A DNA stretch of 64,000 nt from a virus. Positions 2,653 to 47,232 of this stretch are shown here, piece by piece; the stretch's first letter is position 1, and every line of letters starts with the position of its first letter. The translations under genes were made by a program, and so were the position numbers. The notes under the pieces were generated by a model. The model was given only the letters and a program-made list of their open reading frames with translations. It was not told the origin of the DNA and did not search any database. The stretch is from the IMG/VR virus record IMGVR_UViG_3300036832_001149, positions 1 through 64,000 of that record. One strand, given 5' to 3'.

Positions 2653-3809
2653 GTGGTGGCATCTGGGGCACCGGCACCTGGGGGGTCGATGTCTGGGGCA
2701 CCCCGGTCATCGTTCCGCCGGACCCGGGCACCGCCCCGCCCGGGTCGGCCGGGGTCGGGCAGCCCGGTGGCAGCGGCTACACCGGGATCGGCGTCGTGGC
2801 CACCATCGAGTTGGGCGCGTCGATGATGATCACCCAGATGATCCAGTACGCCCCGCCCCCGCCCCAGGTGATCCCGCTGCGCAACTACCGCTCGGTGATG
2901 GACTCCTTCCGGGTACTGGGCGGCAAGCCGGTCGCCCCGCCGGTGATCGACGTGTCCATCCCGGTCGGGGTGACGGTCGGGCTGACCCAGGTGCCGGTGC
3001 CGAACTCCGCCCGGGCCCTGCCGCCGGACATCGACACCGGAGCCACCCTGCGCTGGTATGCCGACAGCTACTTCCTGCACTACTCCGGCAGCGGGCACGA
3101 GACCCAGTGGCTGGACACCGAGGGCGACGTGGCCTGGACGGCCTACGACACCTACCAGCCGGTGTTTGCCCCGGGCTACAACTACCTGATCCCGAGCCCG
3201 AACAGCGCCGAGTCGCTGACCCGACCGGCCCTGGTGTTCGACCCGACCCGGGGCACCTGCATGAACACCGATCTGTCCCTGGATGAGGTGAACAGCGTCG
3301 ATGACCTGGAATGGCTGATGGTGGTATGGAGCCACCCCCTGGCGGCCGGGGCCCAGGCCAGCACCATCCTGGACAACGGCGGACCGGTCCAGGGGCTCAT
3401 CGCCATGCCGTTCGCCGTGTCCGACTCGGTCGTCGGGATGCGCCAGGGGCTGTCCCGGTTCACCGGGGACGGGCTGTTGCTGTGGCAGGACCAGACCGGC
3501 TTCCCGATGTGGTGGGCCCAGATCAGCAACGGCCGCCCGGTCCTGGTCCGGGCCCGGTTCGGGGAACACCCGCTGTTGGAGTGCTGGGGGCCCAAGGGGA
3601 TACACATGGTCCACCGCAGCGTGCTCGACCAGCCCCGCCAGGCCCTGGCCTCCAACTACGTGCTGGGCCGGGAGTTCGGTCAGGTCTCGGCCCAGACCAA
3701 CGCCGGGATGCACCTGATGGAGATCAACTACTACGACCACGCCCTGGGCGATGACGAACTGGCCAGCGCCGTCCAGGCCCTCGACGCCTGTTATGCGGTG
3801 TCCTCGTGA
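2649..3809 (+). CDS. Minor tail protein
   Basis: Start MSGGIWG at ATGA overlap, inside ORF 2301..3809; tail-module synteny. Confidence 0.6.
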   Translation: MSGGIWGTGTWGVDVWGTPVIVPPDPGTAPPGSAGVGQPGGSGYTGIGVVATIELGASMMITQMIQYAPPPPQVIPLRNYRSVMDSFRVLGGKPVAPPVIDVSIPVGVTVGLTQVPVPNSARALPPDIDTGATLRWYADSYFLHYSGSGHETQWLDTEGDVAWTAYDTYQPVFAPGYNYLIPSPNSAESLTRPALVFDPTRGTCMNTDLSLDEVNSVDDLEWLMVVWSHPLAAGAQASTILDNGGPVQGLIAMPFAVSDSVVGMRQGLSRFTGDGLLLWQDQTGFPMWWAQISNGRPVLVRARFGEHPLLECWGPKGIHMVHRSVLDQPRQALASNYVLGREFGQVSAQTNAGMHLMEINYYDHALGDDELASAVQALDACYAVSS

Positions 3810-5995
3810 GCAGGCCGTGGACCCAGCAGGTGGTGGACCGCAGCGATGCCGGGAACCACCGGATCAAGATCACCGCGCCCGGCGGCAGTGCGATCGACGT
3901 CACCTACTTCCGGGGCATCCCGACCCAGTTGGGCAGCTATGCCTTCGGCGACCCGTTCGGGCCGTCGGTGGCCGCGATCGACTTCCCCCAGGTCAGCGTC
4001 TTCGACGCCGTCGGCGGGCCCGGGCTGGAGTGGTTGGTCGAGGGGGCCAATGTCGACATCCTGTGGGAGGAGCCGGACGGCAACCTCACCACGCTGTGGG
4101 AGGGCTTCATCGTCAGCCTGGCCTACAGCCAGGACGAGAACACCTCCAAGGTCTCGGTGCAGTGCAAGGGGGCGCTGTTCCAGGCCGACAACTTCGAGGC
4201 CTATCCGGAGTTCCCGCCGACCCCGATCCCCTACGAACTGTTGATCTACGAGGCGCTCAACCCCCTGCTCCGGCCGTCGTTGCGCACGGCTCCGCTGGTG
4301 ATCGAGTTCCCGGACGACTGGTCGACCGTGGTGCCCGCCTTCGGCGACGACCAGTACTACCTGCGCCCGTACGGGGTCACCCCGGGGGATAGGTGGACCG
4401 GCCTGTCCACCCGCAACACCGGGTCGTGGAACAAGGCACTGACCGGCCAGATCCAGGGCCTGCTGTCGTTGATGTTCACCGCCGACGGGTCGCAGTGGAC
4501 GGTGATGCTCGACCATGGCCGCACCCCTCAGCTACGGGTCCGGCCGGTCCTGTCCGAGCCGGACGAGAACACCCTGGAGGTCTGGGTCGGCCAGCCCGGG
4601 GTGGTGCTCAACCTGTCCGAGGACTGGACCCAGGCGGCCAACGTCTACTACGGCACGGGCACCGACACGTCCGGGGTGACCTACTCCAACACCCGGATCT
4701 CCAGCGACGGCACCCGTACCAGCTATGCCCCGTTCGCGGCCTCCCGCCAGGTCCACCCGTCCTCGATCCTGGTCAACCAGTCCTTCGACGCCTCGGTGAT
4801 GCGCCGGGAGACCCAGATCCAGTTCGACGGGGGGCTTTCCCCGTCGGCGGCGACCGGGGTGGCCCTGAACCAGTTGCAGCGCTCGGCCCATCCCGGCTAC
4901 ACCGGCAGCATCACCCTGAAGCTGGACCCGGCCTGCAACGACGTGACATTCTCCCGCTTCCTGATCCAACCCGGGATGTCGCTGCTGTTGCACGGCTTCA
5001 AGGGGATGCAGTCCGGTCTGTTGGTGCACATCGCCGAGGTCACCGTCAACATCGCCGAAGGATCACTGACACTCACGGTCGATTCCAAGTTCCGCGACCT
5101 GCTCACCATCCAGCAGGTCCAGGCCCGGTCCCGGGATGCGCTGTCCACGCTGCGGGCGTTGAAGCCGGGCAGCTTCTCCCCGGTCATCCAGGACCTGCGC
5201 CGACCGTGGAGCTACGCCGCCGGGTCCGGTGTGATCCCGTCCGCGCCGGGCGGGAAGGACCCGGACGCCACCGCGTTGTTCACCCAGCACGCCAGCGGCA
5301 GCGACACCTTCCCCTGGACCGACCTGACCACGGCGTACCCGCCGAAGTCCTACCCGCAGTTCTACATCGCCATCCCGCCCGCCTCGCCGGACTACAGCCA
5401 GAACTGGGCCCAGACGGTGGACCACTTCGGCATCCCGTGCCTGTTCGCCCAGGGCGGCACCATCCGGCTGACCCAGATCGCCGCCTACGACCAGGACGGC
5501 AAGGTGATGCCGATCCGCTTCCACGTCAGCGTCTACACCGCCAGCGGCATCAACCCGAGCAGCATGCCGATGGTTCCGGGGGCGGGACTGCCGGGCTATC
5601 TGGACAGCCTGGCCGGGCACGTCGGCCAGCACTACCCGTTCTTCCCGGGGGCATTCGAGACGGTCGATCCGAACGGTGCGCCCAAGGGCCCGGGCGATCT
5701 GACCATGAAACAGGACTCCATGATCACCGGCTGGGGCAACTACTACCAGGGGGCCGGGTACTACCCGAACCTGCAGACCGAGGGCGGCCAGCCGACCGGG
5801 ATGCTGGTCGACGAGACGACCTGGACCTTCGACACCACCAGCGACCCGAACTTCCAGTTGCGGCCGAACGAGAACTTCGCCCAGAACGCCGACTCCGGGC
5901 TGTTGTTCTTCATGATCTACGCCGAGAGCATCGTTCCGGGACAGTCGGTCTACTTCCTGGGCCGCTGCTTCCGGGCCGAGCCCGGCACCAGTTAG
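3806..5995 (+). CDS. Minor tail / baseplate hub-like protein (729 aa)
   Basis: Long ORF with host-like codon use, GTGA overlap, tail-module position. Confidence 0.65.
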   Translation: MSRPWTQQVVDRSDAGNHRIKITAPGGSAIDVTYFRGIPTQLGSYAFGDPFGPSVAAIDFPQVSVFDAVGGPGLEWLVEGANVDILWEEPDGNLTTLWEGFIVSLAYSQDENTSKVSVQCKGALFQADNFEAYPEFPPTPIPYELLIYEALNPLLRPSLRTAPLVIEFPDDWSTVVPAFGDDQYYLRPYGVTPGDRWTGLSTRNTGSWNKALTGQIQGLLSLMFTADGSQWTVMLDHGRTPQLRVRPVLSEPDENTLEVWVGQPGVVLNLSEDWTQAANVYYGTGTDTSGVTYSNTRISSDGTRTSYAPFAASRQVHPSSILVNQSFDASVMRRETQIQFDGGLSPSAATGVALNQLQRSAHPGYTGSITLKLDPACNDVTFSRFLIQPGMSLLLHGFKGMQSGLLVHIAEVTVNIAEGSLTLTVDSKFRDLLTIQQVQARSRDALSTLRALKPGSFSPVIQDLRRPWSYAAGSGVIPSAPGGKDPDATALFTQHASGSDTFPWTDLTTAYPPKSYPQFYIAIPPASPDYSQNWAQTVDHFGIPCLFAQGGTIRLTQIAAYDQDGKVMPIRFHVSVYTASGINPSSMPMVPGAGLPGYLDSLAGHVGQHYPFFPGAFETVDPNGAPKGPGDLTMKQDSMITGWGNYYQGAGYYPNLQTEGGQPTGMLVDETTWTFDTTSDPNFQLRPNENFAQNADSGLLFFMIYAESIVPGQSVYFLGRCFRAEPGTS

Positions 5996-7885: not shown

Positions 7886-8221
7886 CTACTTCGCGGAGCG
7901 GACCAAAGGCTCGCAGCCGTCGCATTCGCAGAACCACGGGCTCCACCAACGGGGATCTCCTTCTTCCAGCCACTTCATGTAGGTCGGGGTGATCGGGTGC
8001 TCGCTGATCTTCTCCAGGGCGTGTTTGGCGCAGACCGGATTGTCCTGGAACATCAGCAGCGGGACATCGTCCCGGTCCGTGTCATCGGCCCGCACCAGGG
8101 CGTCGCCGCAGACATGGCACAGGATGATCTTCGGGGCGGGCAGATCCGGGTAGCAGGTGGTGTAGTGCAGGAAGGACCGGAGGACCCAGTAGCGCTCGGG
8201 GACCTCGTCACTCCTGTCCAC
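7886..8221 (-). CDS. Hypothetical Cys-rich protein
   Basis: CHVC, CAKH and CECDGC motifs. Confidence 0.5.
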   Translation of the reverse strand: MDRSDEVPERYWVLRSFLHYTTCYPDLPAPKIILCHVCGDALVRADDTDRDDVPLLMFQDNPVCAKHALEKISEHPITPTYMKWLEEGDPRWWSPWFCECDGCEPLVRSAK

Positions 8222-8615
8222 GGTCGACCACCAGCTTCAGGGTGACCCCGTTGTTGCCCATCAGGCCCAGGACCATCGCGGCGGCCATCTCCTCGGTGAT
8301 CCCCACCGGCGGGATGGTGACCCCGGTCGGGAACTGCTGGTTGGCGTCGTTGGCGTCCGGATTGCTCATCCCGTACTCGTACTGGTAGGCCATCCCGGAC
8401 AGGAAACACCGGGTCATCAGGTCGGTGATCGCATTCGACATGATGGAGTTGGCCCGTTCCTCGTCGTCGGTGGGAACCTCCAGACTGGCCATGGTGTCGG
8501 TGAACACGCTCTGCATGGCCCGGTCTATGCGGTCGCTCTCGTCCGGGTCGAACTGGGACCGGTCGATATGGGTGATCAGGTCGCTTAACTCAGTGGAATC
8601 GTCCGGTTCGGACAT
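8208..8615 (-). CDS. Hypothetical acidic protein
   Basis: Start MSEPDD after AAGGAGACCC. Confidence 0.6.
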   Translation of the reverse strand: MSEPDDSTELSDLITHIDRSQFDPDESDRIDRAMQSVFTDTMASLEVPTDDEERANSIMSNAITDLMTRCFLSGMAYQYEYGMSNPDANDANQQFPTGVTIPPVGITEEMAAAMVLGLMGNNGVTLKLVVDRGQE

Positions 8616-8774
8616 GGGTCTCCTTGGGTGGATGAGGGTGGAGCAAAGGGTCGCGCGCGTCGCGCAGGTCGTGAGGGACAAGCCCACACCATTCCGGGGC
8701 CGGTTTCGCGCCTTGCCGCTTGGAGAACACTTTTCGCGGTTTGACGCGACGCGCGCTGGTCTGGAAAAACAGGA

Positions 8775-8803
8775 AACCCGCCCCCCAGGGTAGGGGGACG
8801 GGC
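8775..8803 (-). terminator. Probable terminator
   Basis: CCCG-CCCCC / GGGGG-CGGG hairpin followed by TTTCCTGTTTTT on the minus strand. Confidence 0.55.
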
Positions 8804-8808
8804 TGCGC

Positions 8809-24163: not shown

Positions 24164-24256
24164 ACTATAACACACTATGATTTCTGTTGTCAAGGTGAAA
24201 CGTGGAAAGCCACCTGAAATGGGTGGCTCGCTCTGCTGTTGACTGTACCACACTAT
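24164..24256 (-). promoter_or_regulatory. Two tandem promoters: TTGACA-N18-TATAGT and ATAGTGTGG-TACAGT
   Basis: Consensus -35/-10 at 24193-24164; second motif copy at 24256-24242. Confidence 0.75.
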
Positions 24257-41955: not shown

Positions 41956-42552
41956 ATGACCACTCCACCGCCAGGGGACGGTCGTAACCAGGTGGTCGAC
42001 CTGTCGGTGATCGACACGGACTGGGGCAATGCCATCGCCGACCGGACCGTCCAGTCCTACGCCAACCAGTCCGATCTGAACTCCGTGTGGGGCGCGGCCC
42101 GCAACGGCTCGACGGCCTACACCGTCGACACCGACGAGTTCTGGGTCCGCCAGGGCGGGGTCTGGAAGCGGACTCCGGGCGGGTATATCGGCGGGGTGGT
42201 CGGTCCGGCCGTCCAGATCGCCTGCCAGGCCTGGACCACCCTGATCGAGTACGACTTCCCGGCCAAGGTCGGCCGGAGATACCTGCTCGACGGCTACGTC
42301 GATTCACAGCAGATCACCGCCAACGGGGCAACCGGGGTCGTGATCCGGGACGACCAGGGTCTCCAGCGGTGGCTCAAATACGAGAGCATCCTGGTCCCGG
42401 GTGCATCCCTGGCCGGGTCGTGCACGATGATCTACACCCCGACCGCGACCAAGACGGCCGCGATCCAGTTGGTTGGGGGGACCTCGGCCGGACAACTGGT
42501 CATCCCGGCCAACTGGGCCCAGATCCAGGTCATCGACATCGGCGGATTATGA
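41956..42552 (+). CDS. Minor virion protein
   Basis: WGNAIADRTVQSYAN...AYTVDTD...W...I.V.DIG. Confidence 0.55.
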   Translation: MTTPPPGDGRNQVVDLSVIDTDWGNAIADRTVQSYANQSDLNSVWGAARNGSTAYTVDTDEFWVRQGGVWKRTPGGYIGGVVGPAVQIACQAWTTLIEYDFPAKVGRRYLLDGYVDSQQITANGATGVVIRDDQGLQRWLKYESILVPGASLAGSCTMIYTPTATKTAAIQLVGGTSAGQLVIPANWAQIQVIDIGGL

Positions 42553-44069
42553 CCGGAACGCTGCAACTGCTCCGGCCCCCGAAGACGAGGACCGAGCTTT
42601 ATCTGCTCACCCAGGTCCTGTGGAACGTCACCATCCCATCCAAACGGGTCTGCCCGCACCACTCCAGCCCGTTCGACGCCTACGCCGAGGCGTTCTTCGC
42701 CGAGACCCCGGTCAGCGTCTGGCTGGCCAGTCGCGGTCTGGGCGGCAAGAGCCGCACACTGGCCTACCTGACCCTGACCGAGGCGGTCGTGCTCGGGGCC
42801 AACGCCACCCTGCTCGGCGGCTCGCTGGCCCAGTCCCAGAACGTCCACGAGGCGATGCAGGAGGGCTGGGAGGCCCCGCTCGCCCCGACCCAGATGGTCC
42901 GCAGCGACACCTCGACCAAGCTGGTGCTGACCAATGACGCCACCGTCCGCCCGCTGACCGCGTCGCAGCGCACCGTGCGTGGTCCCCACCCGCACCGGCT
43001 GCGGATGGACGAGGCCGACGAGATGGACCAGGCGATCTTCGACGCGGCCCTGGGCCAGGCGCTGGCCAGCAAGGGCATCCAGAGCCACACGGCGGTCTCC
43101 TCGACCCACCAGTACCCGAACGGCACCTTCACCGAGGTGCTGCGCCGGGCCGGTGAGCGGAACTGGCCGGTGCACCGCTGGTGCTGGAAGGAGTCCAGCA
43201 ACGACTACGACGGCTGGCTCACGCCGGAGATGATCGAGCGCAAGCGCGCCGAGATCCCGGAGGAGATGTGGAAGGTCGAGTTCGACCTCCAGGAGCCCTC
43301 GGTCGGCAACCGGGCCTTCAACACCGATGCGGTCGAGCGGATGTTCTCGCTGCCATCCGAGCAGGAGTACACCCGCACGGTGCGTGTCGACCTGGAGCGC
43401 TACGAGTTCGAGCCGCCCCAGCGGGCGGCCGAGTACGTGATCGCGGCCGACTGGGCCAAGGAGCAGGACTACACGGTCATCTGCGTGTTCCGCACCGAGC
43501 GCCGCCCGATGAAGCTGGTCTGGTACTACCGGGCCCGGCGGCGGCCCTACCCGGTGATGATCAAGGAGTTCAACGACCAGATGCAGCGCTACTACGCGCG
43601 CGGCATCCACGACGCGACCGGGGTCGGCAACGCCATCAACGACCTGCTGGACATGCGGGCGACCAAGTTCGTGATGGTGGGCCGGGAGCGGGACGACCTG
43701 CTGTCGGAGTATGTGGCGGCGGTGGAGCGCGACCTGGTCCGGGCCCCGCGCATCCCCTCGGCCTACACAGCCCACCTGTACTGCTCGGTGGAGGACCTGT
43801 ACATGCACCGCGAGTACTACTCCAGCCACCTGCCGGACGAGGTCTGCTCGATGGCCCTGTGCTGGCACCTGGCCAAGCGCGGGGTGCTCATCGGCCCCGA
43901 CGTGGTGCCGCGCAGCGAGGAGCCCTCGGACATCATGTCCAAGCTGGTCGGCACCGCCTCGAAGTCCTCGATGGTCGAGTACAACCTGCCGGACGGGCTG
44001 AAGTTCCCCTGGGTGCCTGACGGACAAGTCCATCGCCAGGATTACGGAACACACTTCTTGGATGTGTGA
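42549..44069 (+). CDS. Terminase large subunit
   Basis: ASRGLGGKS (Walker A), LRMDEADEMD (Walker B), AADWAKEQDYTV and HDATGVG, HLPD (RNase H-like nuclease); ATGA start. Confidence 0.9.
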   Translation: MTGTLQLLRPPKTRTELYLLTQVLWNVTIPSKRVCPHHSSPFDAYAEAFFAETPVSVWLASRGLGGKSRTLAYLTLTEAVVLGANATLLGGSLAQSQNVHEAMQEGWEAPLAPTQMVRSDTSTKLVLTNDATVRPLTASQRTVRGPHPHRLRMDEADEMDQAIFDAALGQALASKGIQSHTAVSSTHQYPNGTFTEVLRRAGERNWPVHRWCWKESSNDYDGWLTPEMIERKRAEIPEEMWKVEFDLQEPSVGNRAFNTDAVERMFSLPSEQEYTRTVRVDLERYEFEPPQRAAEYVIAADWAKEQDYTVICVFRTERRPMKLVWYYRARRRPYPVMIKEFNDQMQRYYARGIHDATGVGNAINDLLDMRATKFVMVGRERDDLLSEYVAAVERDLVRAPRIPSAYTAHLYCSVEDLYMHREYYSSHLPDEVCSMALCWHLAKRGVLIGPDVVPRSEEPSDIMSKLVGTASKSSMVEYNLPDGLKFPWVPDGQVHRQDYGTHFLDV

Positions 44070-44506
44070 CTTGATCTCGCTCGACAGTTGATGCGATTGC
44101 ATTCTCGACACTTGCGCTTGGTCGGTTGACGGGGCCAACGGTAAGTGTTCTCTGGTGTGTACTCATGTCCCAGTGGGCAGTGTGTCTTGTTCAGTTCGTG
44201 GTGGTGACCGTGCGCGATCTTGTCGAGCATGTTCTCCGACTTGGTGCCCCAACGCAGGTTGGCCGCACGATTGTCCAAACGATCTCCGTTGAGATGACGA
44301 ACCTCGTGCCCCGGTGGACGACTGCCATGGAACGCTTCACAGACCAGTTGGTGGACGCGACGAGCCGAAGAATAATGGCCGTTCCAGGCATTGAAGACCT
44401 CGTAGCCCTGCTTGGTTACTTTTGTCTTGCGAACGCTCTTGGGTCCCTGGATAAGGCCATCATCGCTGGCGAAGTAGCCAGGGAGACTCGGGATGGGTAG
44501 CCACAT
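44042..44506 (-). CDS. NUMOD4-HNH homing endonuclease
   Basis: WLPIP..PGY..SD.G; VHQLVCEAFHG...RHLNGDRLDNRAANLRWGT.SEN; KTHCPLGHEY...CREC. Confidence 0.9.
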   Translation of the reverse strand: MWLPIPSLPGYFASDDGLIQGPKSVRKTKVTKQGYEVFNAWNGHYSSARRVHQLVCEAFHGSRPPGHEVRHLNGDRLDNRAANLRWGTKSENMLDKIAHGHHHELNKTHCPLGHEYTPENTYRWPRQPTKRKCRECNRINCRARSSHTSKKCVP

Positions 44507-44536
44507 GGAGACATACTAGGGGAAGTTCCTGTTTTT

Positions 44537-44566
44537 GGGCATAAAAAAAGGCCCCCGAAGGGGCCT
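44537..44566 (-). terminator. Intrinsic terminator
   Basis: AGGCCCC-TTCG-GGGGCC then TTTTTTTATGCCC. Confidence 0.85.
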
Positions 44567-44855
44567 GGTGCGGTGAACCAGCCAGGGGCTTCCTCTCTTC
44601 CTGGCTGGTCCGCCACATCCCCCCGGTGACGCTGAGGGGAGGGTCTTGAGGTGAACCGTGATGGTCACAGTGTTCGATAGTCACGTTCGGGGAGGGTAAC
44701 CGTTCACTCTTACCGGCTACCGGTCCCCTACTGCCTTTCTAGTTACGGACCATGGTTGACGGTCCTGTATCGCGCGCCGGGTTCTCCTCGTCGGGTCTCC
44801 GTCGAAACTCACTGTTCGATCGTGCCTCGATGTTCTGGATCGTCGTCGTCGGCGA
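44540..44855 (-). ncRNA. Candidate ncRNA A
   Basis: Promoter 44890-44863, no convincing ORF, several hairpins, terminator at 44565-44540. Confidence 0.45.
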
Positions 44856-44927
44856 TGTCTTCATACTACCACACTATTACATCAGTACAAACACCGAAGG
44901 CCCCGGATTTCTCCGGGGCCCTCCTGG

Positions 44928-45107
44928 TCACAGTCCGTTGATCCGTCGTATGCGCGCCTTCTCCTGCTCCTCGATGAGCCGGGCGATCTGTCGGTCCTCC
45001 CGCTCGATGCGGGTGGTCTCCTGCTGGATCTTCCGGGAGGTCTTGGTGCGCTTGTTGCGCGGACCCAGGAACTGACTTGCGACGATGAGCAGGTCGATGG
45101 GGTTCAT
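44928..45107 (-). CDS. Small basic helical protein (59 aa, not in ORF track)
   Basis: TGTGG-TATACT promoter, GAAAGGAG RBS, MNPIDLLIVASQFLGPRNKRTKTSRKIQQETTRIEREDRQIARLIEEQEKARIRRINGL, then hairpin 44897-44923. Confidence 0.7.
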   Translation of the reverse strand: MNPIDLLIVASQFLGPRNKRTKTSRKIQQETTRIEREDRQIARLIEEQEKARIRRINGL

Positions 45108-45151
45108 CGCTTCTCCTTTCTGTCACTGTCAGTATACCACACTATGATATC

Positions 45152-45406
45152 GGACATAAGAAGAGGGGACCGCGCCAACCTTCCTCAACCGGCTGGGGGG
45201 AGACCTATCCGGTGTGAAGGCGCGATCCCCTCAACGTGCCGAGCCCCGACTCGAACGGGGAGCAGACCACGACTGCTCGGCGACCGACACCAGCAAGAGA
45301 CGTGCTATTGGATCTTGGCCCCGATCGTGGGCCGGTTATGTTCGGAGAACTCTTCCGGCCCGACGATGCTCGCGCTGTCCGCACACGACTGCTCGGTGTG
45401 GTGTCC
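45152..45406 (-). ncRNA. Candidate ncRNA B with tRNA-like minihelix
   Basis: TTGACA-N18-TATAGT promoter; GACACCA/TGGTGTC closing stem; T-loop TTCGAGT; 14-bp terminal helix then T-rich tail. Confidence 0.6.
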
Positions 45407-45411
45407 CTGTC

Positions 45412-45441
45412 ACTATACATCACTATGACATCGGCTGTCAA
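45412..45441 (-). promoter_or_regulatory. Consensus SigA promoter TTGACA-N18-TATAGT
   Basis: Read directly from the reverse complement. Confidence 0.8.
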
Positions 45442-45483
45442 TAGAGCAATGTCCGTACTTCCAGGTCGGGCGATGCGACCATC

Positions 45484-47232
45484 ATGACCATGACCAGCGC
45501 CGGTGGAGACATCCGAGGATATGGGCCCGGTTCGGGTCCGGGCACGACCAACGTGCCGAACAACGCCAGTGTGGGCCAGGAGGAGGTGCCCAACCGCACC
45601 AGCCCGTACCAGGAACTCGGCGTCACCGGCCTCAAGCGCTGGTCGGGCTATGTCGACGAGGAGTTCCTGCCCGCGCTGCGCGGGCGCAAGGCCATCCAGA
45701 TCTTCAAGGAGATGAGCGAGAACGACGCCATCGTCGGCTCGCTGCTGTTCTCCATCGACATGCTGATCCGCGCGGTCGACTGGCATGTGCAGCCCGCCTC
45801 GTCCTCCCAGCCCGACCAGATGGCGGCCCAGTTCGTCGAGTCGTGCATGAAGGACATGTCCCACACCTGGGACGAACTGGTCTCCGAGATCCTGTCCATG
45901 CTGGTCTACGGCTGGTCGTGGCACGAGGTGGTGTACAAGAAGCGCGCCGGTCCCAACCGCAACCAGGAACTGAACTCCAACTACGACGATGGCCTGATCG
46001 GCTGGCGCAAGATCCCCATCCGGGCCCAGGAGACCTGGCTGCAGTGGGTGTTCGACGACTCCGGCGAGACCACGGCCTTGGTCCAACTGGCCCCGCCGAC
46101 CTACCAGCGCACGGTCATCCCCCGGTCCAAGAGCCTGCTGTTCCGCTACAGCACGGCCAAGAACAACCCCGAGGGCCGCTCCATCCTGCGCAACTCCTAC
46201 CGGTCCTGGTACTTCAAGAAGCGGCTGGAGGAGTTCGAGGGCATCGGCATCGAGCGCGACCTGGCCGGTCTGCCGGTGGCCTACATCCCGGCCGACTACC
46301 TCAACGCCAAGCCGGACACCCCGCAGTACAAGATCGTCGATGCCTTCCGCCGCATGGTGCGCAGCGTGCGCCGCGACGAGCAGGAGGGGGTCATCATGCC
46401 GATGGCCTACGACGAGGACACCAAGCAGCCGCTGTACAAGTTCGAGTTGATGACCTCGGGCGGGGCCCGGCAGTTCGACACCAACACCATCATCAGCCGC
46501 TACGAGCAGCGCATCCTGATGACCGTGCTGGCCGACTTCATCATGGTCGGGCACCAGGACACCGGCAGCTACGCGCTGCACGTGGACAAGACCGGCATCT
46601 TCCGCTCGGCCCTGAACGCGGTGGTCAAGTCCGTCGCCGACGTGTTCAACCGCATCGAGATCCCGAGGCTGTTCGCCCTCAACGGCTGGTCGATCGAGTC
46701 GTTGCCGGTGCTCACCCCGACCGACGTGGACCCGCCCGACCTGGCCCAGTTGGGCGCGTTCGTCCAGCAGATGAGCGCGGCCGGGATGACCTTCTTCCCG
46801 GACGAGGACCTGGAGGCGTTCCTGCGCACCACGGCCAAGCTGCCCCCGGTCAGCCCCGAGGTGGCGGCCGAGCGCACGCAGCAGGCGAACCAGCAGCAGG
46901 CGATGGAACTGGCCCAGCAGCAGATGGAACTGGCCACCTCCCACCAGGGGCTGGAACAGGGCCAGCAGGGCATGGAACAGACCGACCAGTCGATGTCCCA
47001 CGCCGACCAGCAGCAGCAACTGGCCCAACAGCAGGCCGAGATGCAGGCCCAGACCGCCCAGTCGAACCTGGCCACCGGTTCCGAGCAGGCCCAGCAGCAG
47101 CGGGAGACGCACACGATGAACGTGGCCCGCTTCGTGCAGAGCTACAAGGACTCCGAGGCGGCCCGGCGCAACCCGAACGTGCAGGGCCCGGGTCAGGGCA
47201 AGACCACCGGCAAGTACACCGCGAAGAGATGA
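45484..47232 (+). CDS. Portal protein (DUF935/Mu gp29-like) with Gln-rich C-terminal extension
   Basis: ELGVTGL..WSG.V.EEFLP.LRG, NNPEGRSILRN.YR.W.FK, GIERDLAGLP, GSYAL; follows terL. Confidence 0.88.
   Translation: MTMTSAGGDIRGYGPGSGPGTTNVPNNASVGQEEVPNRTSPYQELGVTGLKRWSGYVDEEFLPALRGRKAIQIFKEMSENDAIVGSLLFSIDMLIRAVDWHVQPASSSQPDQMAAQFVESCMKDMSHTWDELVSEILSMLVYGWSWHEVVYKKRAGPNRNQELNSNYDDGLIGWRKIPIRAQETWLQWVFDDSGETTALVQLAPPTYQRTVIPRSKSLLFRYSTAKNNPEGRSILRNSYRSWYFKKRLEEFEGIGIERDLAGLPVAYIPADYLNAKPDTPQYKIVDAFRRMVRSVRRDEQEGVIMPMAYDEDTKQPLYKFELMTSGGARQFDTNTIISRYEQRILMTVLADFIMVGHQDTGSYALHVDKTGIFRSALNAVVKSVADVFNRIEIPRLFALNGWSIESLPVLTPTDVDPPDLAQLGAFVQQMSAAGMTFFPDEDLEAFLRTTAKLPPVSPEVAAERTQQANQQQAMELAQQQMELATSHQGLEQGQQGMEQTDQSMSHADQQQQLAQQQAEMQAQTAQSNLATGSEQAQQQRETHTMNVARFVQSYKDSEAARRNPNVQGPGQGKTTGKYTAKR

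Follow-up and report, generated by a model that had tools for sequence, protein, structure and literature searches.

The 75,534-bp phage genome recorded in IMG/VR as IMGVR_UViG_3300036832_001149 was assembled from a soil metagenome and has a G+C content of 66%; we analysed its bases 1–64,000, hereafter the window. At issue are two complementary heptamers: GGAGAAC, which marks ribosome-binding sites (RBSs) of the early genes, and GUUCUCC, which lies at the apex of non-coding hairpins, foremost in a conserved element that we call R1. An earlier interpretation made from the letters of the DNA (the sequence-only reading) had located such complementarity in two predicted transcripts, RNA B and RNA A, and had proposed that the hairpin loops of RNA B repress early-gene translation globally and that RNA A acts as its sponge. 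Our analysis re-ranks the candidates and places R1, at 8.7 kb, ahead of RNA B and RNA A. Gene calls were heuristic, based on G+C content at third codon positions plus Shine-Dalgarno (SD) sequences. Interactions were computed with a helix-only model that includes accessibility terms (ViennaRNA unpaired probabilities) and ignores bulges.

Organization of the locus

The small minus-strand early genes occupy a block at ~6.7–26 kb, downstream of sigma-70-like promoters that share an ATAGTG..GTAnnnT element. Three further promoters of the early type lie on the minus strand between the genes for the terminase large subunit (42087–44069, plus strand; weak PHROG match) and the portal (45484–47232, plus strand; Portal_Mu, phrog_113), antisense to both. 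They are placed to drive, in order, RNA B (~45405–45160), a 59-amino-acid (aa) open reading frame (ORF; 45107–44928) and RNA A (~44858–44545), 3′ of which lies an HNH endonuclease gene. We model both RNA A and RNA B as non-coding units that extend from a promoter to a terminator of their own. The promoter of RNA B, P1 (45412–45441, minus strand), matches the consensus at 11 of 12 positions (TTGACA, 18 nucleotides (nt), TATAGT) and contains the ATAGTG..GTA element as in the early promoters; its motif recurs near 24256, 24178, 21803, 18961, 45145 and 44877.

Portal-based retrieval yielded four relatives with 72–87% portal identity (L001–L004), one of which, L002, is the complete genome G001. All four carry an antisense cassette at the same position, with the same promoter type, a small protein and an RNA A homologue. 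The cassette is fast-evolving, lies antisense between terminase and portal, and has the promoter class of the early genes. Rfam gave no meaningful match, either for the whole window at the gathering threshold or for 44000–45600 at E ≤ 10, where an Atu_C8 match was rejected as one whose score is driven by the terminator. ARAGORN detected no tRNA or tmRNA, BLAST of the cassette against the phage collection returned no match in near or distant mode, and the exact loop patterns searched for in IMG/VR were not found there.

A start-associated motif of the early genes

GGAGAAC is present at 17 of 33 minus-strand early translation-initiation regions, 2–6 nt 5′ of the start codon, and at 0 of 51 plus-strand (late) ones. 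When the early genes are aligned on GGAG, the bases that follow are A (20/23), A (18/23) and C (20/23), and conservation ends there; most start codons lie 5–7 nt beyond the end of GGAG. Late genes aligned in the same way show no A-A-C pattern. Across the window, GGAGAAC occurs 33 times on the minus strand versus 12 times on the plus strand, and the complete relative G001 has a similar bias (25 versus 8). All four relatives use GGAGAAC as the RBS of their cassette ORFs. The early genes of this phage carry a class-specific start-associated motif, (A)AGGAGAAC. It extends past the pairing of the SD sequence with 16S rRNA, as judged against a generic 16S tail, sits at a fixed short distance from the start, and is confined to a single gene class in a single orientation.

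The sequence-only reading had placed both GGAGAAC and GGAGACC in front of many early genes. That description holds for GGAGAAC and is wrong for GGAGACC, since the latter is the RBS of one early gene only (8615–8208). The GGUCUCC loop of RNA B, complementary to GGAGACC, concerns this single gene. GGAGAAC copies in the late region of a further relative, G007, were considered as RBSs and rejected, as they are Glu-Asn codons.

R1, a conserved hairpin element with an invariant GUUCUCC loop

The route to R1 led through G001, in which one of eight same-strand copies of GTTCTCC forms the loop of an intergenic hairpin that is homologous by BLAST to window positions 8616–8808. R1 itself (8649–8762, minus strand) comprises a 14-bp closing helix, a hairpin termed P2 with a 15–16-nt loop that holds GUUCUCC at 8728–8722, and a third, irregular hairpin. 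Homologues are found in G001 (L091, 193–325) and G007 (L093, 127–242), and covariance-model scores range from 98 to 124 bits. The closing helix shows compensatory changes, the stem of hairpin P2 changes from C-G to A-U among the three sequences, and double changes affect 5 of the 32 pairs of the consensus fold. In the loop of P2, GUUCUCC is invariant in all three phages, and the loop differs on both sides of it. R1 has the homologues, compensatory changes and invariant unpaired block of a conserved structured RNA, with the low statistical power that three members afford. The invariant block is exactly the complement of the seven informative positions of the early RBS.

In each of the three phages the prediction leaves this heptamer accessible, with opening energies of 1.0–1.4 kcal/mol. 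R1 of the window reaches predicted interaction energies at or below −6 kcal/mol with 15 of the 33 early starts, versus 0.8 ± 1.2 for shuffled sequences, none of which (0/400) reached 15; the corresponding count for late starts is 4 of 51. GTTCTCC occurs three times in the ~20.6 kb of early-strand sequence: one copy is coding, one is in R1 and one is in hairpin 1 of RNA B. By a rough estimate, which is not a formal test, the chance that two of three copies fall in apical regions of non-coding hairpins is ~10^-2 to 10^-3.

A terminator-like hairpin with a U-rich tract (8764–8802, minus strand) lies directly 5′ of R1, at a position that is conserved in G001 and G007. On the 3′ side follows the one early gene with GGAGACC (8615–8208, minus strand; annotated as 8208–8623; RBS AAGGAGACC), which encodes a 135-aa protein of no known family. 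A degenerate R1 pattern gave 119 matches in IMG/VR, none confirmed by the covariance model, and protein-based retrieval of R1 loci returned only the two known relatives. The search for homologous proteins identified one further homologue, P0002, encoded by a 72-kb ENA contig. Five complete genomes of more distant relatives, which show no GGAGAAC strand bias, yielded no R1 match at E ≤ 1. We do not count this result as evidence, because diverged copies could escape a model that derives from three close sequences.

RNA B carries the two heptamers in its longest hairpins

RNA B (minus strand, ~245 nt) is predicted to fold into hairpin 1, a tRNA-like minihelix and hairpin 2 (fold z = −3.3). It has a predicted promoter of its own (P1) and a predicted intrinsic terminator, formed by hairpin 2 and the U-rich tail that follows; it has no coding potential, contains no ORF with an RBS and has no match in Rfam or by ARAGORN. 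The heptamers named by the sequence-only reading are where it had placed them, near the tips of its two longest hairpins. Hairpin 1 (45322–45368) carries GUUCUCC at 45350–45344, an exact complement of GGAGAAC. Hairpin 2 (45163–45232), the terminator-like one, has a 16-nt apical loop with GGUCUCC at 45205–45199, followed by a run of C; in this loop UCUCC is predicted to be free (P 0.95) and GG weakly paired.

Interaction prediction with shuffled controls was the check that the sequence-only reading had suggested, and part of its outcome is in favour: against the 33 early start regions RNA B has a mean of −3.6 kcal/mol, compared with −2.4 ± 0.7 for 250 shuffles (P about 0.04). Most of this signal comes from the 5-nt UCUCC of loop 2, and late starts score nearly as high. 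Among dinucleotide shuffles of RNA B, GTTCTCC appears with P = 0.04 and both heptamers with P = 0.002, values that look small, but the second motif (GGAGACC/GGUCUCC) was picked after the fact.

The base of hairpin 2 is homologous to a terminator hairpin of L001, and its apex differs. In the relatives, which keep the target motif, the anti-SD seeds of RNA B are not conserved. RNA B as a duplicate of R1 was considered and rejected, the local alignment being no better than those of shuffles (P = 0.38). Among the sequencing runs listed as holding this DNA, none is an RNA run; those listed are soil metagenomes, whose fragments are nearly all near-identical to the window. One short diverged piece, X3, has 8 differences in 143 nt and spans only the P1 promoter and the 5′ end of RNA B, and no fragment shows differences at the loops or at the RNA A sites. 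Because the fragments are near-identical and X3 lies outside the loops, this material does not inform variation at the loops or sites.

RNA A is a conserved structured RNA

RNA A (44545–44858, minus strand) is a non-coding RNA of ~315 nt, extending from promoter P3 (44863–44890) to a terminator at 44566–44549. Its core consists of three hairpins that are conserved with compensatory changes in L001–L004, and it includes the conserved block GACUAUCGAA..ACUGUGRCC. Together the five sequences make up a structured RNA family in which the hairpins GGRYC/GRYCC and CUGUGRCC/GGYCCAG covary and for which Rfam gave no match (window 44640–44772, minus strand; L001 2600–2732; L002 2550–2652; L003 1935–2046; L004 2755–2850).

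The two RBS-like motifs lie side by side in RNA A (44781–44800, minus strand), GGAGACC at 44800–44794 and GGAGAAC at 44787–44781, and the observation that no start codon stands at RBS distance is borne out: there is no ATG, GTG or TTG within 12 nt downstream. Both motifs are part of a linker, inside an imperfect tandem repeat of ~13 nt. This linker is variable and both motifs are absent in the four homologues. The sites are predicted to be largely paired (opening energies 3.2–4.2 kcal/mol), and they stay closed when the homology-supported hairpins are imposed on RNA A, with opening costs of 3.2 and 4.2 kcal/mol. For the two proposed contacts between RNA A and RNA B the predicted totals do not go beyond −1.4 and −3.8 kcal/mol. 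In 99% of shuffled RNA A sequences, which are less structured than RNA A, the best contact with RNA B is stronger than the real one. RNA A has neither accessible sites with better-than-chance predicted binding nor sites that its homologues share, as would be expected of a sponge. It is a real, conserved structured RNA and most likely not a sponge.

A metagenome scan with the RNA A core motif gave, besides L088, which is from the same contig as L002, only unrelated matches at chance level. Four related soil metagenome contigs (L082, L085, L086 and L090) carry a promoter-like site followed by a ~130-nt element that contains the 21-nt block GACUAUCGAAGGACUGUGGCC of the L002 RNA A core. The element has no Rfam match, and its likeness to the L002 core is probably due to chance.

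A parallel in Cluster K mycobacteriophages

Cluster K phages carry a 13-nt start-associated sequence (SAS) 5′ of 13–19 non-structural genes, and whether its partner is a phage RNA or a protein was left open when it was described (Pope et al. 2011, PMC3203893). Papers of 2024–2025 still term its role unknown. Like GGAGAAC in our phage, the SAS holds the SD core and extends beyond the 16S pairing, sits a few bases 5′ of the start codon, and is found in one orientation at only non-structural or early genes. The motifs differ in that the SAS is the 13-nt GGGATAGGAGCCC, whereas ours is the 7–9-nt (A)AGGAGAAC of another phage lineage with another host, and inverted repeats like those of the extended SAS (ESAS) are absent here. 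The RBS motif behaves like a SAS but differs in sequence from that of Cluster K; we regard GGAGAAC as an analogue of the 13-mer, not a member.

The likeness extends to the complementary strand. Adephagia has 16 forward copies of the SAS and one reversed copy, and the reversed copy makes up the 10-nt loop (CCUCCUAUCC) at the apex of a hairpin of very high stability (z = −6.7) on the transcribed strand. This anti-SAS hairpin (L228 33650–33730; 58,654–58,724 in record JF704105; also L229–L238) lies in the 432-nt gap that separates gene 92 from gene 93, and 126 Cluster K records contain it. Of 11 diverse records, 10 have the loop unchanged, and stem positions change with compensation. In the Cluster K papers that we read, we found no mention of this hairpin. 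As R1 holds the reverse complement of GGAGAAC, so the conserved Adephagia loop is the SAS reversed. Two unrelated actinophage lineages thus share one layout, an early start motif together with one complementary hairpin loop. Their settings differ: the Cluster K hairpin stands at the late transcription start, mapped between genes 92 and 93 by RNA sequencing (RNA-seq; PMC11373665), whereas R1 is found within the early block, directly behind a terminator.

A candidate RNA switch for early translation

The explanation that we prefer, tentatively and at a little less than even confidence, is that GUUCUCC loops pair with GGAGAAC RBSs and modulate early translation, with R1 as the conserved effector and hairpin 1 of RNA B as a second copy. 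On early mRNAs, the loops would anneal to the GGAGAAC RBSs and in this way tune translation, most likely by repressing it. R1 would act as the conserved effector; hairpin 1, transcribed from a strong near-consensus promoter, would supply a second, lineage-specific and less accessible copy of GUUCUCC, and loop 1 is plausibly a second anti-start-motif loop in this sense. Loop 2 (GGUCUCC), the GGAGACC/GGAGAAC pair of RNA A and the sponge are most likely coincidence. Pairing in vivo, its sign and its timing are inferred; the analysis itself establishes the motifs and their class specificity, the conserved R1 loop with its predicted accessibility, and the non-conservation within the cassette. The idea of an RNA hairpin loop aimed at early RBSs therefore survives from the sequence-only reading, but mainly at R1.

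Pyrimidine-rich apical loops of stable hairpins are known to pair with the G-rich RBSs of many mRNAs, as in actinobacterial 6C, RsaE/RoxS and Staphylococcus aureus RNAIII. RNA B resembles such small RNAs (sRNAs), whose C/U-rich loops target SD sequences; its loop 2 has a run of six C. Unlike them, it is phage-encoded, and what it is proposed to target is AAC, by which this phage extends the SD sequence, and not the generic GGAG core. It matches no family, and 6C RNA (RF01066) gave no match in 44000–45600 at the gathering threshold or at E ≤ 10. Phage functions that act at the RBSs of many early mRNAs also have precedent: in T4, the endoribonuclease RegB cuts within GGAG and RegA is a repressor, and both shut down many early mRNAs at their RBSs. 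The T4 effectors are proteins, whereas the candidate here is an RNA loop; no homologue of RegA or RegB came to light, though no search was aimed at one.

Several observations weigh against pairing between GUUCUCC loops and early RBSs. R1, RNA B and RNA A are known from prediction alone; R1 comes from three sequences of one clade, and follows a terminator directly, without a visible promoter. The complementarity between GUUCUCC and GGAGAAC is exactly 7 nt, without extension. The GUUC of loop 1, which the sequence-only reading had placed in a hairpin loop, is predicted to pair with an adjacent GAAC (P about 0.99), which leaves a UCC triloop and an opening cost of 4.2 kcal/mol for the heptamer. 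Hairpin 1 has no homologue in the four related cassettes, and neither GTTCTCC nor GGTCTCC occurs on the cassette strand of L001–L004, though all four use the GGAGAAC RBS. The other part of the interaction check also went against RNA B, since only 2 of the 33 early starts reach −6 kcal/mol with it (P = 0.26 by shuffles).

A rather unlikely, though far from negligible, alternative is coincidence, under which RNA A and RNA B, as non-coding early transcripts or as structures for processing or termination, have roles unrelated to the RBS motif, and the 7-mers are chance matches in GC-rich loops with purine or pyrimidine bias. The sequence-only reading had itself allowed for chance in matches of 7 nt, and these two GC-rich RNAs of ~300 nt share 13 exact complementary 7-mers where 9.1 are expected (P = 0.18). 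None of the four motifs is conserved, the net energies are weak, and the post hoc choice of the second motif and the use of GGAGACC at a single gene also fit chance. Three results speak for more than chance. Shuffles seldom give both motifs in RNA B, nor do those of RNA A (1.2% of dinucleotide shuffles, P = 0.012); two of the three early-strand GTTCTCC copies lie in apical hairpin regions; and the same heptamer is under apparent selection in R1.

Cassette transcripts could instead act in cis, as complements of late plus-strand read-through that cause transcriptional interference or RNase III processing, with the loops irrelevant. The antisense placement between terminase and portal, kept in four relatives despite variable content, would suit such a role. 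Small phage RNAs such as lambda OOP and P22 Sar work through full complementarity with an overlapping transcript, and like the cassette RNAs they have their own promoter and terminator and are transcribed against a neighbouring operon; global repression by RNA B would require trans pairing through 7-nt loops instead. Nothing indicates that late transcription crosses the cassette, however, and a cis-antisense role leaves the conserved internal structure of RNA A and the heptamer unexplained. We consider it improbable as the whole explanation; it is compatible with pairing between GUUCUCC loops and early RBSs.

That the GUUCUCC loops of R1 and of hairpin 1 in RNA B serve as protein-binding sites, or work solely in cis on the neighbouring gene, we regard as very improbable. 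R1 does lie in the 5′ leader of gene 8615–8208, whose SD sequence GGAGACC can form 5–6 pairs with the loop. This SD is GGAGACC in two of the phages but AAGGAGCGA in the G007 ortholog, where GUUCUCC is still unchanged, so the R1 loop does not track its own SD; nor would an exact complement of seven conserved RBS bases be expected of a protein site.

To the full proposal of the sequence-only reading, in which early translation is globally repressed by the two loops of RNA B and RNA B is titrated by RNA A, we give scarcely any credence. In its favour are four reciprocal 7-mers, ordered as an antiparallel double contact would require (RNA A's 5′ site facing RNA B's 3′ loop), and strong early-type promoters for all three cassette units. 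But the RNA A sites are unconserved and predicted to be mostly paired, their duplexes with RNA B are weak and do not exceed chance, few RBSs are GGAGACC, and the model fails because the loops are not conserved, the outcome that the proposal itself had named as refuting it.

Beyond this phage, and with slightly more reserve than for R1 itself, we raise the possibility that actinophages whose early genes bear a start-associated motif encode, in addition, a dedicated hairpin RNA with an apical loop exactly complementary to that motif, and that this loop would pair with the RBSs of the entire early regulon and switch its translation. Candidates are R1 plus RNA B hairpin 1 in the soil-phage clade and the anti-SAS hairpin in Cluster K. 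If true, this would be an RNA-based counterpart of T4 RegA/RegB and would tell what recognises SAS motifs; a phage RNA loop as the SAS partner would be a new means for a virus to govern an entire class of genes through translation. Cluster K offers a direct test of the idea: Adephagia grows on the laboratory strain Mycobacterium smegmatis, and both phage recombineering and RNA-seq data exist for it.

Other features of the cassette

The minihelix of RNA B (45237–45281, minus strand) consists of an acceptor-like stem and a T-arm with the loop UUCGAGU, and is the sole part of RNA B that is conserved in L003 and L004. It was recognised by reading of the sequence, from a BLAST match to L004 and from an L004-like contig of the same soil sample. 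In L003 (~2515–2565) and L004 (~3240–3285) the minihelix (loop UUCGAnU) stands directly 5′ of the RBS of a small ORF, in the ORF leader, and a 13-nt repeat of its 5′ strand is found near the 5′ end of RNA B (45395–45383). It may be a processing signal of the RNase P/Z type.

A cassette RNA of G001 (L002 ~3790–3815, minus strand) has a hairpin loop, AUCCCUCCC, that is complementary to a generic SD of the GGAGG type, and at its apex the equivalent hairpin of L001 is rich in C. Apical loops rich in pyrimidines may recur among the cassette RNAs.

The HNH endonuclease gene 3′ of RNA A (44042–44506, minus strand) matches Pfam HNH_3 at 5e-18 and phrog_1492 at 1e-52. The 59-aa ORF (44928–45107, minus strand) has its own promoter, P2 (~45128–45158), and the RBS AAGGAGAAG; its product has a hydrophobic N-terminus, gave no match in Pfam and PHROG searches, and is conserved in L001–L004. 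This small protein and its homologues are 59–100 aa long, each combining a hydrophobic segment at the N-terminus with a highly charged tail behind it.

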